Positions 2,958-14,187 of a stretch of 64,000 bases of DNA are shown piece after piece. Both the position numbers and the translations under genes were made by a program. The notes below the pieces were generated by a model. The model was given only the letters and a program-made list of their open reading frames with translations, had not been told where the DNA came from and made no database searches. Position 1 is the first letter of the stretch, and each line of letters begins with the position of its first letter. This stretch comes from Pseudomonadota bacterium (GTDB lineage Bacteria; Pseudomonadota; Alphaproteobacteria; Rhizobiales; Pleomorphomonadaceae), in NCBI GenBank assembly GCA_018262575.1, contig JAGSYU010000006.1, positions 7,528 to 71,527 of the forward strand, written 5' to 3'.

Positions 2958-4856
2958 ATGATGGAAGAGCGGAAAAGCCGGTCGCCGGAGGCAGGCGAGG
3001 CGGGCGTAAAAGCCATGCTGATGTCGGCCGAGGAAGAAAACGGCTGGCTGGCGCGGGAAGCAACGCGCGATCCGGACAAGGGCATGCCCTACATGGGCTT
3101 CGAGCCGGGCGAGTGGTACGAGGGGGCCGACGAACTCGGCCTTTTCCCCGGCTGCCCGATTTTCCCGCTCGGCACCGATGGCGACATGTATTTCTTTCTC
3201 GACACCATCGGGCAGATGCGCGTCTTCAGCTATTCCGAGCTGGGCAAGGCCGGCGTGTCCAGCCTGTTTCAGGGGCGGCATCGGCTGCTTTATTGGGCCT
3301 GGCCGCGCGGCATCAAGAACCGCGAGGGACAGTGGGTATCCGTCAACGGCTGGGACAACAACCTGGCCGGCCACGACCTGATGGGCGCTTGCGCCCGGCA
3401 AGGGGCCTTCGACCCGGCTGACAAGCCGCGCGGCCGGGGCGTGTGGAAGAGCCGCAAGGGCGACCTGATCGTACACTGCGGCGACAAGCTGTACCTGGTG
3501 GGCCGGGCGGCCAACCGGCCGGAAGAGGCCATCAAGGAAGTGCCGCTGGGTGTTTATGAGGGGCACGTTTACATGTCGCGGCCGCCGATCGCGCGGCCGT
3601 GGCCGGTGTCCATGGCCGACCTCGACGGCCCGGCGCTGGATATCTATCCGCTGCTCAAGACGTGGAACTGGGCGCGGCCGGACGTCGACCCGATCCTTCT
3701 TATCGGCGAGATCGGCGTCATGATCCTCGGCGCTGCGATCGATTTCCGCCCGACCGCCTTCATGATCGGCGATCGTGCGCGCGGCAAGTCGACGCTGCAA
3801 CAGCTCATTCGATGCCTGCTGCAGGGATGGTTGATCAAGGCGGCCGACGCCAGCGCCGCCGGCATTTATCAGCCGCTGAAGCATGACAGCCTTCCCGTTT
3901 CGCTCGACGAGCTGGAGAGCGAGAGCGACAACCGCAAGGGCGAAGCAATCATGAAGCTCGCCCGCGTGTCGGCCTCCGGTGACCTGATCTTGCGCGGCGG
4001 CGACAAGCATACGGGCGTCGCTTTCCGGGCGAGATCCGCATTCCTGTTCTCGGCCATCAACCCGCCGCCGATGGAGACGGCGGAAATGAGCCGCATGGCG
4101 TTCCTGGTGCTGAAGACGCTGAAGGCAGGCCAGGCGGAACCGGTGATCGACGAGGAGAAGATGGGCCGCGTTGGACAGCGGATCGTTCGCAAGCTGCTCG
4201 ACAACTGGCATAGATGGCCGACCACACTGGCCGCCTACAAAGCGGCGCTCGCCAAGGCCGGCCACGACGGCCGAGGGCAAGCGACCTTCGGGACGCTGCT
4301 CGCCTGCGCCGACATGATCATCGATGGCGACGCTGCCGCGCTGGGGATAGAGATGGGCGACAACGCCACCTATCTCGACATCTGGGGCGAACGTCTTCGC
4401 CCGGCGACCATGATCGAATACGACGGGCAGGCGGACAACTGGCGCGCCTGTATCAGCCACATTCTCACCACGCCGATCGACGCATGGAAGGGCGGCTCCA
4501 GAACGACCGTCGGCGGCGTCATCGAGCGCTATTGGATGGTGGACTATTCCGACCCCGACCACCTGGCCATGCAGGCGGCCAACGATTTGCTCGGCGCGGT
4601 TGGCCTGAAGCTGGTGATCTCGGCCGAGAAGAAAACCGAGCTGTTCATTCAGAACAGCAACTCGGCCCTGCAGCGGATCTTCCAAGGCTCGAAGTGGTAC
4701 GGCAAGCCGAATAGCGGCGGCTGGGCGCTGGCGCTAAGGACCGGCATGCCGGAGGATTGGTTTCGGCATGACAATCTCTATGTCACCGGCAACAAGGGCC
4801 GGGGGATCGCCGTGGCGCTGGACAAGCTGATGCCGAATGAGACGGGCGGCGACTGA
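2958..4856 (+). CDS. Phage replicative P-loop ATPase/helicase
   Basis: Walker A GDRARGKST, Walker B PVSLDE, FLFSAIN motif; same module as the primase. Confidence 0.8.
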   Translation: MMEERKSRSPEAGEAGVKAMLMSAEEENGWLAREATRDPDKGMPYMGFEPGEWYEGADELGLFPGCPIFPLGTDGDMYFFLDTIGQMRVFSYSELGKAGVSSLFQGRHRLLYWAWPRGIKNREGQWVSVNGWDNNLAGHDLMGACARQGAFDPADKPRGRGVWKSRKGDLIVHCGDKLYLVGRAANRPEEAIKEVPLGVYEGHVYMSRPPIARPWPVSMADLDGPALDIYPLLKTWNWARPDVDPILLIGEIGVMILGAAIDFRPTAFMIGDRARGKSTLQQLIRCLLQGWLIKAADASAAGIYQPLKHDSLPVSLDELESESDNRKGEAIMKLARVSASGDLILRGGDKHTGVAFRARSAFLFSAINPPPMETAEMSRMAFLVLKTLKAGQAEPVIDEEKMGRVGQRIVRKLLDNWHRWPTTLAAYKAALAKAGHDGRGQATFGTLLACADMIIDGDAAALGIEMGDNATYLDIWGERLRPATMIEYDGQADNWRACISHILTTPIDAWKGGSRTTVGGVIERYWMVDYSDPDHLAMQAANDLLGAVGLKLVISAEKKTELFIQNSNSALQRIFQGSKWYGKPNSGGWALALRTGMPEDWFRHDNLYVTGNKGRGIAVALDKLMPNETGGD

Positions 4857-4880
4857 TCCTTCATTCTTGCATCTTGAGGG

Positions 4881-4975
4881 CTCGGCGACGCTCCAGTGAT
4901 GGAGCGTGCGCCAGGCCGCGCCAGCGGCCGACCAGGGCGGCACGCGGCCGAGGGTGAAGCCTCGGGCCGCTTCCT
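4881..4975. repeat. 95-bp structured direct repeat, copy 1
   Basis: 84/95 identical to 5187-5281 by manual ungapped alignment. Confidence 0.9.
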
Positions 4976-5002
4976 GTCATCTCCTCCAGAATGTGCTAGA
5001 TT
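4974..5002 (+). promoter_or_regulatory. Candidate sigma70 promoter CTGTCA-N17-TAGATT with extended -10 TG
   Basis: Motif match and spacing only. Confidence 0.3.
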
Positions 5003-5186
5003 GGGGTGCTGCTGCGGAGCGGTGCAAACCACCGCGCCATGCTTGCTTAGTCGGTGTTACGTGGGGCTCCGGGCGGGGAGCTGACTGGTGCCAGGCTGGA
5101 AAAGAGCCATAAACTATGCCTCCGACTAAGACCGCCATCCGGAGTAGTGCCCGGACAGCAGCGCCTTCCCTCCCCCTGTAGATAGC

Positions 5187-5281
5187 CTCGACGACGCTCC
5201 AGAGATGGAGCGCGCGCCAGACCGCGACAGCGGTCGACCAGGGCGGCGCGCGACCGAGGGTGCCGCATCGGGCCGCTTCCT
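5187..5281. repeat. 95-bp structured direct repeat, copy 2
   Basis: 84/95 identical to 4881-4975; includes compensatory changes. Confidence 0.9.
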
Positions 5282-5400
5282 TCTCCCGACCTCCTCATGC
5301 GCCTTGGATCGCCGACAGCGCCAATCCTGACGCCTCAGCCCCCACCCTATTCTTGCCCGAGATACGCAATGACGGCGATGTGGCGTGCCCTGTCGGGTTG

Positions 5401-5716
5401 GGGTGTTCTGCCGGTGTTCTGTCGCTAAGCCATTGATATCTATGACGCCCGGAACGACGTGTTCTATTGGCGTCCTGTGCTAAGCCAATGATTTGAAAGG
5501 GAAATCTGAAACCGGAACGGATAGAGCCGGTCAAGGGGTCGTATGCGATTACGCGCGCGCGGGCGCGCAATCATCACATACCCATATCCGTTCTAACGAG
5601 AGATATTCCTATATATATCAATCACTTAACACAGGACGCCAATAGAACACGCCGTTCCGCTGTCCAAGAAAAGTGAACGATCTCAAGGCCTTGAAAGCGG
5701 AACGCCTCTGTTCTGT
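5401..5716. other. Putative phage replication origin (iterons, long inverted repeat, IHF sites)
   Basis: ~11 YGTTC/GAACR units in both orientations; 34-bp inverted repeat 5451-5484/5625-5658 (2 mismatches); IHF consensus at 5426-5438 and 5616-5628; AT-rich patch. Confidence 0.6.
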
Positions 5717-5749
5717 CGGCCGTCCGAATAAAGAAATGGGGTTTATCCG

Positions 5750-6328
5750 ATGGACACTCGGCACGGCGGGAAGGCGATCATAGCTGGCGGTCTCGGCGAT
5801 GAGGTGACCACGCCGGAACCGGAGCAAGAGGAGCTGTTCGAGCGCGATGCGCTGGCCGACGCTCCGCTCTTCCTGTTGGAGATCGACCAGCGCGGCAATG
5901 AGGTCACGCGCGGCGGACCGGGTCGGCCGAAGGGCAGCCAGAACAAGACCACCGAGCAGATGCGCCGGGTGTTCCTTTCCAAGTACCGCGACCCGCTGAT
6001 GGCGGCCGGCGAGATCATCTCGACGCCGATCGACGTCCTGAAGGTCCAACTCGGCGCGGCGACGAACCTCGAAGCGGCCGAGTTCTGGCGCAAGGTGCTG
6101 GTCGACGTGCTGCCCTACATCCATCAGAAGCGGCCGATCGCCCTGGAGGGCGGCGGCATCTCGGCCGGGGTGCTCAATGTGGTCATCGGCGACGTCGTCG
6201 TCGGCAATCCTGCGGGCGGTGAGTTTGGCGTCAACATGCGCCTTGTCGATGGTGAGCAAAATCAATCACTTAGCGATAGTCGGAACGCAGAGCCTCATGG
6301 CAACGCACCTCACGACGAAGACAAGTGA
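5750..6328 (+). CDS. Probable terminase small subunit
   Basis: GRPKGSQNK motif, LPYIHQKRP; directly upstream of TerL. Confidence 0.7.
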   Translation: MDTRHGGKAIIAGGLGDEVTTPEPEQEELFERDALADAPLFLLEIDQRGNEVTRGGPGRPKGSQNKTTEQMRRVFLSKYRDPLMAAGEIISTPIDVLKVQLGAATNLEAAEFWRKVLVDVLPYIHQKRPIALEGGGISAGVLNVVIGDVVVGNPAGGEFGVNMRLVDGEQNQSLSDSRNAEPHGNAPHDEDK

Positions 6329-6563
6329 TTGAAATGAAAAGGGAAACCACGTCCTAGGCCGGTGATGAAAACTCACCTTCAGCCAGGCCGCTCCCCTCTC
6401 GATCGATGAGGAGGGGGGTGGCCTTTTATATGGCGGACCGCCAGGCCGGAGGCCCCCCCGAAATCGCTTTTCCGTTTCGCATGGGTGCTGCCCCGTGCGG
6501 TTTTCAGCCCTTGAAAGGGCGCGGAACTTGATCGTTGCGGACGTGGGTCGGGGGTGTGGTTCG

Positions 6564-8087
6564 ATGCCTGAGACGATGATGAGCCCGGACACCTACCGAT
6601 CGCCTGGACCGGTGGCTTCCGCCTTCCTCTCATCATCGGCTCTCGTGCGCTTCATCATGGGGCCATTCGGGTCGGGCAAGACGAATGTCTGCCTGATGGA
6701 CGCCCTGGCGCACGCTGCGCGAATGCCGGTCTGTCTCGATGGGGTGAGGCGGTTCCGTGGTGTGGTGCTTCGCGATACATACGCCAATCTATGGCAGACG
6801 ACAATCAAGACCTGGGCAAATTGGTTCCCCAAGGAAAAAGGCAAGTGGACCGGTTCGGAGGGGCGCCAAGCGCAACACGTTCTCCGCTTCGATCTGCCGG
6901 ACGGAACCAAGCTCCACTTTGAAATGCTGTTCCTGGCGATCGGCGATGACCGTATCGAGGACGTGCTGCGCGGCATCGAATTCACCTGGCTGATGATGAA
7001 CGAAGCCGACCTGCAAAGCGGCGACGTGCTGACGTATGCCGTCGGTCGCGTCACGCTTCGGCGTTATCCACGAACCATCGACCTCCGGCCGGAAGATCGC
7101 GAGTACTTCGTCGGCATCGTCGGCGACCTCAACCCGCCGGACACCGATAGTTGGGTCTATGAGCTGTTCGAGGAAACCAAGCCGGCCGAACACATCATGT
7201 TCAAGCAACCGTCCGGCCGGTCGCCTCTCGGCGAGAACCGCGGCGCCATTCCCCGCGAGGCCTACGACCGCCTGGCCGAGGCAAACAAGCACAAGAAATG
7301 GTGGGTGAAACGCATGGTCGACGGGCAATACGGCCCGTCGCGCGAAGGCGACCCCGTCTATGGCGACGATTACGACGACAGCGTGCATTTTGCCGATGGC
7401 GAGCTTCAGCTTTTCAAGGATTTGCCGCTTCGCCTTTCCTTCGACCAGGGCGTGACCGGGCCGGCCATGCTGATCAAGCAATACACCTATTCCGGCCAAC
7501 TCCGTGTTCTCGAGGAACTGGTGCCTGGCCGTATGGGGGAAACCCGCTTCGGAGAACGCTGCAAGATCCTGCTTGAAGAGCGCTATGGCGCCATCCCGTC
7601 AACGCGCTGGCGCGCGGTTTGCGACCCGGCCGGCTTCACTGGCGGCGATGCGGAGGGCGGAGATCTAGCCTGGGCCGAGACGGTAGCCAGAATACTCGGG
7701 ATAGTGATCCTCCCGGCTGAAACCAACGAACTGAAAGCCCGTATCGACGGCGTATCGCAGCTCCTGCGCTATCGGATCGATGGCCAGCCGGCTCTCATCA
7801 TTTCGAGCCTGTGTCCGATGCTCCGGAAGGGGTTCAATAGCCATTATCGCTACAAGACGATCAAAGGGGCCGATGGCCGATCGGCGAACAAACCCGAGAA
7901 AAACGAATACTCCGACCCACACGACGCCCTTCAGTATGGGGTTCTCGACCTTGGCGGCCGCTCGGCGGTGATCTCTGGAGACCTCACGAAAAAGGGCGGC
8001 GTCGGCCGTCAGGACCGTCACGACGAAGACAGCGACGATGTCCATATTCCGGCCGGATCGGGGGGCTTTGATGTCTTCGCCTGCTGA
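6564..8087 (+). CDS. terL: Terminase large subunit
   Basis: Walker A GPFGSGKT, Walker B LMMNEA, GDLNPP, nuclease motifs SFDQG, VCDPAG, SDPHDALQY; start uncertain (6495-6576). Confidence 0.92.
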   Translation: MPETMMSPDTYRSPGPVASAFLSSSALVRFIMGPFGSGKTNVCLMDALAHAARMPVCLDGVRRFRGVVLRDTYANLWQTTIKTWANWFPKEKGKWTGSEGRQAQHVLRFDLPDGTKLHFEMLFLAIGDDRIEDVLRGIEFTWLMMNEADLQSGDVLTYAVGRVTLRRYPRTIDLRPEDREYFVGIVGDLNPPDTDSWVYELFEETKPAEHIMFKQPSGRSPLGENRGAIPREAYDRLAEANKHKKWWVKRMVDGQYGPSREGDPVYGDDYDDSVHFADGELQLFKDLPLRLSFDQGVTGPAMLIKQYTYSGQLRVLEELVPGRMGETRFGERCKILLEERYGAIPSTRWRAVCDPAGFTGGDAEGGDLAWAETVARILGIVILPAETNELKARIDGVSQLLRYRIDGQPALIISSLCPMLRKGFNSHYRYKTIKGADGRSANKPEKNEYSDPHDALQYGVLDLGGRSAVISGDLTKKGGVGRQDRHDEDSDDVHIPAGSGGFDVFAC

Positions 8088-8499
8088 CCTCACCTATCGG
8101 TCGGGCAACTGGCGCGATATCGCCGCGCTCGGCCACCGTCTGACGCCCGACCGGTGGCGCCAGGTGGTCTATCAGTGCGCACGCTCGGCCGTGTTCACGG
8201 TGCTGGATGATGGCAAGCCGGTGGCTGTGGCGGGGCTATGCCACGACCGTGATGGCATCGAGATATTCCTGTTCATCGAGCAAGGTTTACGCGGATCGCC
8301 GCGAGCGGCCGGAATGGTCCGGCGCTTGATCCGCTTGTTCCGTCGTGAGGCGCCACCGGCGGTCTATGGCGTCGGTGTCGCTGATGGGCACGAACCGGGC
8401 CGGCGGCTCGCTGAAATGGCCGGCTTCACCTTCTGGCGGCACCTTCCGACCGGGGAGGACAGCTACTGGCTCCGGCTTGGTCCCTCCGATGAATCCTGA
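8071..8499 (+). CDS. GNAT-fold phage protein
   Basis: DGKPVAVAG...GRRLAEMAGF acetyltransferase-like pattern; overlaps terL stop. Confidence 0.6.
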   Translation: MSSPADLTYRSGNWRDIAALGHRLTPDRWRQVVYQCARSAVFTVLDDGKPVAVAGLCHDRDGIEIFLFIEQGLRGSPRAAGMVRRLIRLFRREAPPAVYGVGVADGHEPGRRLAEMAGFTFWRHLPTGEDSYWLRLGPSDES

Positions 8500-8554
8500 C
8501 GGGCGGGCCTCGGGCGGATCGTTGCCATGGGGAATAGCCCCAAGAGGATCTGCC

Positions 8555-9046
8555 ATGACTACCAAAATCACCGTTGAAGCCCATGCTGGCTGGCCTGTGG
8601 CCGTCTATGCACTCGACAGTTTTTCAAGTGCTACTGCTGCGAATGTCACTGAACACCTGCTCGAGATTATCCCCCCTGGGGATGCGAAAGAGTTCCACGC
8701 GACAAGCAATCGGGAAATCCGTTGCGTTGAGCTTCCGCGAACCGACATCGTCGGCCTTCAGCCTGTGCCGAACCCTCTCGATTTCGCATCCGTCGTCCGT
8801 GGCCTTAAGGCCGGCAAGCGCTTTGCCCGCGCTGGGTGGAACGGCAAGGGCATGTTCATTTTCCTGGTTCCCGGCTCTCGCTTCACGGTCAACCGCGAGC
8901 CCCTGCTGTCGATCCTCGGTGATGGCGCCGAAGTCGACTATCACGCCCACATCGATATGAAGACGGCGCAAGGCTACGTCGTGCCCTGGCTGGCGTCGCA
9001 GGCCGACGTGCTGGCCGAGGACTGGACCGAAGTCGTTCCGGCCTGA
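8555..9046 (+). CDS. DUF2829 (Tad2-like) domain protein with extra N-terminal domain
   Basis: LDF...LKAGKRFARAGWNGKGMFIFL...IDMKTAQGYVVPWLASQADVLAEDW signature; gagga RBS. Confidence 0.88.
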   Translation: MTTKITVEAHAGWPVAVYALDSFSSATAANVTEHLLEIIPPGDAKEFHATSNREIRCVELPRTDIVGLQPVPNPLDFASVVRGLKAGKRFARAGWNGKGMFIFLVPGSRFTVNREPLLSILGDGAEVDYHAHIDMKTAQGYVVPWLASQADVLAEDWTEVVPA

Positions 9047-12878: not shown

Positions 12879-13754
12879 ATGGCCAGACAGGCTCCCAATT
12901 GGTACGTCCAGCAGTGGAAGGACGGTACCACCCACGAATATCAGTCGACGGGCTTTGCCCTGAAAAACACGACCACTCCCCCTGTGAAGGTCGTGGGCGA
13001 TAAGCTCTACTTCAACAAGATGGGCGTCGGCTACGCCGAGGAAGATGTTCAGGTTGGCGACAAGGCCACGCCAATGAACCCCGACCAGGGCAAAGTCGAG
13101 CTTGGTACCAAGAAGAGCCGTGCCTTTTACGAGGTCTATGAAGACGACCTTGACCAGATGACCGCTGACGAGCGGGCGGACAAGCAGAAAGAAAGCGCAC
13201 AAGCGCTTGGCCGAGTGCATGACCGGACCATCGTCGGCGCCGTCAAGTCGGAAGCGGCCGGCTCTGTCGGCGCCTACGCTGCCGGCGGTAGCCTTAGTCT
13301 GCTGCTGCAGGGCCGCCAGGCGCTTCTCGCCGAAGACGTCCCCTGCGAGGACGGAAACGTGTTCTGCGCCGTCGATAGCGTGACGTGGTCGCTGCTGCTC
13401 GCCTACGAACAGTTCACGAACAGTCAGTGGGTTGGTCCCGCCCTGCCCTTCGTCACGGGCGCGCTCGCGAAAACGTGGAATGGCATCCACGTGTTCCAAC
13501 TCTCGGACAAAACGCTCCGCATGCAGGATACCGCGTCGGCTGACGCCGCCGGTCAGGCAACCTGCCTGATGTGGCACAAGGGTGCGGTTGGTTTCGGTAC
13601 TGTGCGGGACATGACCGGCGATGTCGCATGGGACATCGACTACGACTGCTGGAAGCACTCGATGCGCATGCGCATCGGCTCCAAGCTGATCCTGCCGAAG
13701 GGCGCGGTGAAGCTGCTGACCAAGTACGACGCCACCCTGATCTCGCTCATCTGA
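12879..13754 (+). CDS. Major capsid protein
   Basis: YVQQW...ALGRVHDRTI...WNGIHV...MWHKGAVG; gagga RBS; follows scaffold. Confidence 0.88.
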   Translation: MARQAPNWYVQQWKDGTTHEYQSTGFALKNTTTPPVKVVGDKLYFNKMGVGYAEEDVQVGDKATPMNPDQGKVELGTKKSRAFYEVYEDDLDQMTADERADKQKESAQALGRVHDRTIVGAVKSEAAGSVGAYAAGGSLSLLLQGRQALLAEDVPCEDGNVFCAVDSVTWSLLLAYEQFTNSQWVGPALPFVTGALAKTWNGIHVFQLSDKTLRMQDTASADAAGQATCLMWHKGAVGFGTVRDMTGDVAWDIDYDCWKHSMRMRIGSKLILPKGAVKLLTKYDATLISLI

Positions 13755-14116: not shown

Positions 14117-14140
14117 TCCGCACCTCACGGTGCCATGCTG

Positions 14141-14170
14141 GGCCGCGCTCGAACACGGGCGCGGCCTTTT
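14141..14170 (+). terminator. Intrinsic terminator
   Basis: GGCCGCGCTCG-AACA-CGGGCGCGGCC-TTTT. Confidence 0.65.
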
Positions 14171-14187
14171 CTCGTCAGGAGGCCGCC

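Follow-up and report, generated by a model that had tools for sequence, protein, structure and literature searches.

The nut sites of phage lambda (boxA/boxB) and the put sites of HK022 are present in two copies per phage, and their effect on RNA polymerase is exerted in cis. In phage P4, replication needs in cis two 120-bp direct repeats, known as crr, which carry the iterons of the initiator and act as duplex DNA. The RNase III signals of phage T7 are repeated intergenic bipartite hairpins, cleavage of which leaves a protective 3' hairpin (Dunn and Studier). Other hairpins function as single-stranded (ss) DNA. The RepB' protein of plasmid RSF1010 contacts the 5' flank and the stem base of the ssiA hairpin, not its apical mini-hairpin (PMC8567376, PMC13037366), and the multi-hairpin signal of phages G4, St-1 and alpha3, with its GCGNNAGC-type apex, resists SSB (PMC13037366).

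There has been hardly any work on the temperate podovirus-like phages of Hyphomicrobiales-type hosts, for which neither the origins nor the early/late switches have been defined. Here we describe a duplicated non-coding element of one such prophage, a base-resolution mark of a constrained signal next to the probable replication origin. We consider the element to be a real, albeit modest, phage control element that matches no described family. Its two redundant copies, with a 44-nt core and natural compensatory variants, make it a clean test case for distinguishing RNA from ssDNA function: as a priming signal, it would extend the enzyme-specific ssi of the RSF1010 style to tailed phages, whereas as an RNA, it would represent an undescribed cis-regulatory motif. 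Its general importance is limited by its narrow distribution, which encompasses six metagenomic phages.

The repeat pair and its prophage setting

A tailed prophage within the 64,000-nt stretch of DNA that we analysed (the window) has a single large non-coding gap (4857-5749), which contains the repeats. The genes upstream of the repeats, all on the plus strand, encode a primase of the Toprim/DUF7146 type (447-1544), GapR-like and Lar-like proteins, and a 632-aa helicase/primase-C-terminal-like replication protein (2958-4856; phrog_21086, E=5e-66; phrog_35358 'DNA primase', E=1e-29). Relatives of the 632-aa protein, hereinafter the helicase, are annotated in their sources as DNA primase/helicase or DUF927, and its stop codon lies 24 nt before the first repeat copy. 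Downstream of the repeats are a gene for a 192-aa protein (5750-6328, plus strand), the large terminase gene (terL, 6495-8087; phrog_2 match) and genes for a Tad2-like protein, a T7-type portal, the capsid and the tail. The 192-aa protein has no Pfam match and only a weak match to phrog_15261; judging from its position alone, directly upstream of the large terminase, it is probably the small terminase (hence, terS-like). Every gene flanking the element has the plus strand as its sense strand, and no phage RNA polymerase gene was found in the prophage.

The strongest terminator-like site of the prophage lies elsewhere, behind the capsid gene (12879-13754), where a 12-bp GC stem is followed by a mixed T/C tail (14140-14177, plus strand). 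Two prophage genes are candidate anti-defence genes, namely, that for the Tad2-like domain protein (8345-9046; PF11195, E=3e-22) within the packaging/structural operon and that for the Lar-like restriction-alleviation protein (2042-2521; PF14354) in the early operon.

A repeat search of the window recovered positions 4881-4975 (copy W1) and 5187-5281 (copy W2) as an ungapped 95-nt direct repeat with 88% identity, 11 differences and a start-to-start distance of 306 nt, reproducing the gapless pair claimed in the preliminary description of this DNA. When W1 was compared by BLAST with the whole 4.4-Mb assembly, W2 was the sole real match (E=3.9e-29), all others being GC-rich fragments of at most 40 nt with E-values of at least 7e-4; likewise, a covariance model scan of the 4.4-Mb genome yielded no copies beyond these two. 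With two copies in 4.4 Mb by both approaches and none in 400 genomes of the order, the element is not a dispersed REP or MITE, the case that the preliminary description had named as decisive against it.

On the plus strand, each copy can be drawn as three hairpins (hp1 to hp3) and a long-range stem, P2, that encloses hp2. W1 consists of hp1 (4892-4903, loop GTGA), P2 (4904-4912 with 4936-4945), hp2 (4914-4929, loop GCCA) and hp3 (4946-4968), with a C/T-rich tail extending to about 4995. The corresponding parts of W2 are hp1 (5198-5209, loop GAGA), P2 (5210-5218 with 5242-5251), hp2 (5220-5235, loop GACA) and hp3 (5252-5274), the latter with two mismatches, and a C/T-rich tail is again found 3' of the copy. 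Both compensatory changes between the copies that had been described previously, G35-C48 to A-T in hp2 and T27-A62 to C-G in the long-range stem, are present in the alignment, and so are the four loop changes; missing from the earlier account was position 81 (C to A), a plain mismatch in hp3.

The 211-nt spacer between the copies (4976-5186) is found only in this phage, its counterparts in relatives being 18-27 nt long, and matches neither the rest of the genome nor any relative. It was rejected as a structured RNA, given that its fold is no better than those of shuffled sequences (z-scores of -0.58 and +0.42). The 3' end of the spacer resembles the C-rich tails behind each copy; the spacer may have arisen by insertion into such a tail or be what is left of a third copy.

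Related phages and the position of the element

Closer kin of the phage were collected from a large protein collection, with helicases 91% and 82% identical and terS-like proteins 82-64% identical to those in the window. The element is carried by six phages, the window phage included, which are delineated by a helicase at least 82% or a terS-like protein at least 72% identical, and which together yielded 11 copies, some of them truncated or degraded and all of them located in this gap. All copies are direct repeats on the plus strand. In addition to W1 and W2, there are two copies 114 nt apart in L065, two in L066 + L063, the second cut by the contig end, and two in L051, 111 nt apart and each incomplete; the L050 + L056 contigs are interrupted within the repeat, an indication of two or more copies, and L062, on a contig that begins 100 nt upstream, has a single diverged one. 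Thus, copy number, spacing (18-211 nt) and completeness differ among the phages and several copies are visibly decaying, but at least one intact core is retained in every phage of the clade. L080 was left out of the comparison for too little upstream DNA on its contig. The end of the L039 contig within the gap was considered as a clue to the genome terminus and dropped, the downstream DNA there being coding.

Beyond these six phages, the element is absent from L070 and L071 (both at 49%, or about 50%, helicase identity), and no homologue was found in the IMG/VR and GTDB loci reached through the helicase (31-46% identity). A DNA search of the phage database gave no match, and a protein search of the same database retrieved only relatives that are at most 33% identical. 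Pattern scans of viral contigs produced 0 matches to the core and 0 to an invariant downstream 26-mer; the scan of metagenomes returned two chance matches, both inside coding DNA, and that of genomes at the family level returned only the genome under study. In L052, the same gap contains a single GC hairpin and a similar C-rich tail. The element family is thus narrow and clade-specific.

The helicase-to-terS gap is an accessory-gene hot spot in this phage group. It accommodates a gene for a 476-aa protein with no Pfam match in L051 (4902-6332, minus strand), small open reading frames (ORFs) in L050 (around 3536-3775) and L052 (5145-5441), and HTH and ArdC-like/MPTase-PolyVal genes in L070 (4384-6248) and L071 (4327-6236). 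A perfect 12-nt palindrome, GCCGGCGCCGGC, lies between the copies in L065 (3160-3175) and L066 (5148-5161).

Downstream of the element, the six phages share a block (5390-5720) with a mean column identity of 83%. This block includes GTGTTCT repeats at 5403, 5414, 5459 and 5644 (the last on the minus strand); the heptamer occurs 11 times in the window against 3.7 expected, 4 of them within 250 nt. All clustered GTGTTCT sequences fall in 5403-5650, and none is found in the element (4881-5281). It further contains two 54-nt inverted arms (5450-5503 and 5606-5659), a GC palindrome (around 5550-5569), an invariant 30-mer (5572-5601) and an AT-rich core (around 5602-5625). Across the phages, the arms are 45-54 nt long, and their variable positions co-vary between phages (TGTG/CACA, ACAG/CTGT, ATAA/TTAT). 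The block is origin-like, its mirror-image repeats and meltable core being of the type that origins located directly 3' of primase-helicase genes display; it is probably the replication origin, with a cos/pac site as the alternative. Between the element and this block, directly 3' of the last copy, lies a C-rich, G-poor stretch (5280-5360, plus strand; GC skew -0.46), which is found also behind the last copy in L065 (3260-3340; GC skew -0.48) and could serve as a Rho-loading site on the sense transcript.

In four phages, the terS-like gene starts 445-468 nt from the last copy. The upstream neighbour varies: in the window, L065 and L066, the element follows the helicase stop codon, whereas L050 has an extra small ORF and L051 the inserted opposite-strand gene in this place. 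The element starts about 24 nt past a stop codon in four phages. Given that the upstream content varies and the downstream distance is fixed, the element belongs with the downstream block.

The conserved core, its strand and its coding potential

The conserved part of the element is a 44-nt core composed of the 9-bp P2, which has one bulged G, an asymmetric (1x6) internal loop and a 6-8-bp hp2 capped by a GNNA loop. Applied to a plain MAFFT alignment of the 11 copies, RNAalifold picks only P2 (24-32 with 56-65) around a 6-bp hp2. The four-helix model pairs 92-93% of the alignment cells and, in the MAFFT alignment, 92.3%; displacing the 3' partners by 1-3 columns lowers the figure to 30-53%. 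P2 is paired in all 86 of 86 cells; at pair 27-62, 5 copies have U-A, 4 have C-G and none violates the pairing, and both states occur within one phage (W1 versus W2, and copy 1 versus copy 2 of L066). For hp2, 64 of 65 cells are paired, with one G-C to A-U switch in W2. Moreover, L062 has exchanged its whole hp2 stem, in the same place and between unchanged P2 strands, for another one of 8 bp that carries a GCAA loop. In the MAFFT alignment, 3 pairs changed on both sides, versus 1.1-1.4 in shuffled controls. A structure-aware alignment, which leans towards the four-helix model, gave 6 of 27 versus 1.4 in shuffles, with 0 of 500 shuffles reaching 6; the copies are close kin, so these changes represent few independent covariation events. 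The 44-nt core folds identically in W1, W2, L065 and L062, with z-scores of -2.5 to -3.6. Sequence is conserved as well: the core is about 94-100% identical among phages with flanks 73-82% identical, and between the window and L062, P2 with its flanks is about 94% identical against a background of about 73%.

The peripheral parts are less constant. L062 and the second copies of L065 and L051 retain just 4 bp of hp1 or a disrupted version of it, and hp3 pairs in only about 79% of cells, its fold varying from copy to copy and degenerate in the second copies of the relatives. An outer closing stem was dropped, as it is absent from the conserved pairing. We also rejected a switch between P2 and an extended hp1, a form that comes from a single-sequence minimum-energy fold: the extended hp1 is mismatched in most first copies and impossible in second copies. 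A mixed T/C tail with 3-5 T in 11 positions follows hp3 and is similar to that of the capsid-gene terminator, but in an intrinsic terminator scan of the plus strand from 4600 to 6000 no site passes, hp3 with its tail included.

Thus, of the selected multi-stem fold put forward in the preliminary description, the central P2 and hp2 stems hold, being kept through changes on both sides, whereas the degenerate hp1, the partially paired hp3 and the unconserved closing stem do not: the selected object is a bipartite core rather than the full fold. The preliminary description had recognized no family, and the Infernal scan agrees: with Rfam 15 and E-values up to 10, cmscan of 4000-6500 gave best scores of 14-20 bits against thresholds of 47-120 bits (E 1-7). 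A tRNA/tmRNA scan yielded none. The suggested antisense, immunity or decoy role gained nothing in its support; the other suggestion, ssDNA hairpins read by the phage primase, continues to be a serious rival.

Which strand folds can be addressed through wobble pairs, loops and energies. The earlier hint that the minus strand folds, based on wobble pairs in the closing stem, was not borne out: wobble pairs unique to the plus or the minus strand number 7 versus 7 and fall mostly within the poorly aligned hp3. All intact hp1 loops (GTGA, GAGA, GCGA, GCAA) are GNRA and the hp2 loops (GCCA, GACA, GCTA, GCAA) are GNNA; in both tetraloops, G1 and A4 are invariant and the middle positions take seven forms. 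The plus strand is favoured because this sheared G-A closing pattern exists only on the plus reading. The consensus fold has an energy of -20.9 kcal/mol on the plus strand versus -17.9 kcal/mol on the minus strand. Taken together, it is probably the plus strand, not the minus, that folds.

The same copies speak to coding. That the shared minus-strand frame changes mostly non-synonymously, as had been pointed out previously, is right and true of all six frames, in which 13-26% of changes are synonymous. Repeat-containing small proteins from either strand, such as one from the plus-strand frame beginning MERAPGR, are largely refuted and hardly credible. This frame is open through the core in five copies, the copy spacing is a multiple of three in 3 of 4 phages (306, 114 and 111), and automated annotation called a minus-strand gene of 77 aa across the L065 copies. 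However, none of the six frames stands out in its synonymous share; a 1-nt insertion interrupts the MERAPGR frame in L066 copy 1, a TGA ends it in L051 copy A, and its start codon is missing from L062 and L065 copy 2; and the open minus-strand frames are not the same between phages, the called ORFs having no Pfam match.

Readings of the element and its described counterparts

We favour, with a probability of roughly 40%, a cis-acting RNA module at the early/late operon boundary, in which the folded molecule would be RNA rather than ssDNA, hp3 would be terminator-like and the core would have a protein partner. The element would be part of a read-through transcript leaving the replication genes, in which hp3 with its tail might act as a leaky terminator or as a 3'-end protecting hairpin for the early operon, whereas the P2/hp2 core would be a site recognized by a protein, such as an RNase III-type dsRNA processing enzyme or an antitermination factor. 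Together, hp3 and the core would determine how much transcription reaches the packaging genes beyond the C-rich stretch and the origin-like block, the two copies providing redundancy. Consistent with such a module, the plus strand is the sense strand of all neighbours and the element begins shortly past a stop codon in four phages, the hp1 loops are textbook GNRA, and hp3 with its mixed U/C tail is like the capsid-gene terminator, the sole convincing one of the prophage, and is combined with a C-rich, Rho-loading-like stretch behind the last copy. Yet transcription across the element is assumed, and in L051 the 476-aa opposite-strand gene splits the helicase from the element; therefore, it is the origin-like block, rather than the 3' end of the early operon, that the element accompanies. 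Conservation of the P2 and flank sequences is typical of protein-recognized sites and needless for a simple terminator or stabilizer. Moreover, hp3 and its tail fail the terminator scan, and hp3 decays in the second copies of relatives. Furthermore, a pyrimidine at position 3 of the hp2 loop makes it GNNA rather than the RNA-favoured GNRA, the hp2 apex matches the GCGNNAGC mini-hairpin DNA motif known from priming sites (PMC13037366), and wobble pairs favour neither strand. The covariation events are few among such close kin, and template switching in replication can yield matched hairpin changes without RNA selection (PMC8794818). A more elaborate RNA reading, which we regard as improbable, takes the tandem units as aptamer-like domains of a new riboregulator class; their ligand would be a factor of the phage or the host, or a small molecule, and they would control the switch from transcription of the replication genes to origin firing and late-gene expression, with the core as the pocket and hp3 as the expression platform.

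The closest rival of the RNA module is an ssDNA initiation signal belonging to the adjacent origin, a reading that we consider somewhat less likely but worth serious attention. Once the helicase unwinds the origin-like block, the plus strand of the element would fold into hairpins free of SSB, to be recognized by the phage primase (447-1544) or a loading factor, with DNA synthesis proceeding leftwards and two copies again providing redundancy. The fixed 445-468 nt to the terS-like gene and the adjacency to the iteron/AT-rich block, whatever lies upstream, the enrichment of GTGTTCT in that block and the primase and helicase genes of the phage itself next door all suit such a signal. The same is true of the phylogenetic range, confined to replication proteins at least 82% identical and absent at 50% or less, as for an enzyme-matched signal. 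As in RSF1010 ssiA, the lower stem and flanks are fixed in sequence and the apical hairpin is free (PMC8567376, PMC13037366); the hp2 apex fits GCGNNAGC in 10 of the 11 copies, and DNA energy parameters give the same hairpins. Weighing on the other side, both copies are on one strand, in contrast to one ssi per strand in RSF1010, Toprim/DUF7146 primases usually read short template words, and the adjoining block could be a packaging site. Besides, at a leftward fork the plus strand would serve as template for the leading strand, which is less exposed than that for the lagging strand, and a single-stranded phase would have to be assumed here. It is much more doubtful that the hairpins are incidental to duplex protein-binding repeats of an origin or packaging site, analogous to the P4 crr enhancer or to small-terminase sites. 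The P2 halves are strongly conserved in sequence and are inverted repeats of each other, and the direct duplication adjoins a block that resembles an origin or pac site and shortly precedes the terS-like gene; nevertheless, the sequence enclosed by the P2 halves forms a perfect hairpin in all copies, swapped for another in L062, where by our estimate 8 matched pairs would arise by chance with a probability of about 5e-5 at this composition, and GTGTTCT is missing from the 95-nt repeats, unlike in crr with the iterons of its initiator.

Tandem small RNA (sRNA) genes are known in alpha-proteobacteria, and compact stable folds with C/U-rich tails that contain CCUCC-like anti-Shine-Dalgarno words behind each copy would suit an sRNA, independently transcribed or derived from the 3' UTR, that targets host or phage mRNAs in trans or titrates a protein. 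We rate this as very unlikely, given that neither strand has a promoter-like site, no canonical terminator is present, no Rfam sRNA family is matched even at E up to 10 and the tails differ between copy types. Alternatively, and still with little likelihood, the element is a functionless GC-rich quasi-palindrome shaped by recent duplication, gene conversion and template-switch changes in its stems: the copies are close kin of variable number, spacing and completeness, several of them decaying, and one template-switching event can make paired changes (PMC8794818). The difference in identity between the core and its flanks, the intact core kept by each phage of the clade and the constancy of loop positions G1 and A4 while the middle positions vary in seven ways argue against the absence of function. 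Two further candidates were rejected. Hairpin hp2 resembles the hairpin of the Escherichia coli type I-E CRISPR repeat, which raised the idea of a CRISPR-repeat mimic or RNA anti-CRISPR, but the type I-E repeats of three genomes of the host genus share with hp2 only a generic CCGC..GCGG stem and neither handle. The genome itself (86% complete) contains no Cas1 and no convincing CRISPR array; type I-E CRISPR-Cas loci, with arrays of 61-nt period, are present in 3 of 16 species of the host genus (G007:C11, around 918.8 kb; G008:C54, around 94-102 kb; G009:C40, around 11.3 kb). The repeats of type III toxin-antitoxin RNAs do not correspond either, the copies being 18-211 nt apart and the next gene, about 450 nt off, having no Pfam match and occupying the small-terminase position.

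Among the described systems that act as RNA, the T7 RNase III signals are similar to the element in shape only: P2, the 1x6 loop and hp2 would present an intergenic bipartite hairpin in the sense transcript. T7 sites are spread between many genes, whereas here two adjacent copies, each with about 15-17 bp in all, mark one boundary. With nut and put, the element shares short hairpins with GNRA-like loops, the vicinity of a C-rich Rho-loading stretch and the number of two per phage; however, those sites serve two operons and lie just past the promoters, whereas the copies here are in tandem, with no boxA, no N-like or Q-like gene identified and no Rfam match. Intrinsic terminators and REP/BIME 3' stabilizers are likewise GC hairpins located shortly past a stop codon, and the tail of hp3 is like that of the capsid terminator, but the scan accepts no T-tract in the element, which also greatly exceeds a terminator in size and, unlike REP, is not dispersed. 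The crr of P4 is comparable as two direct repeats near a primase/helicase gene and an iteron origin; unlike crr, the 95-nt repeats have no GTGTTCT, and their hairpins co-vary. The complementary-strand origin of phages G4, St-1 and alpha3, three hairpins used by the host primase, is also multi-hairpin with a GCGNNAGC-type apex, but belongs to ssDNA phages with an obligatory single-stranded stage, whereas the element resides in a dsDNA tailed prophage and has no sequence similarity to it. Finally, as in the ssiA/ssiB of RSF1010 (IncQ), a hairpin signal with a conserved stem base and flank accompanies an iteron-type origin, here probably represented by the 5390-5720 block, and the primase of the replicon itself; ssiA and ssiB are 40-nt single hairpins, one per strand, whereas the units described here are 95 nt long, form up to three hairpins, lie on the same strand and are paired with a primase of another type.
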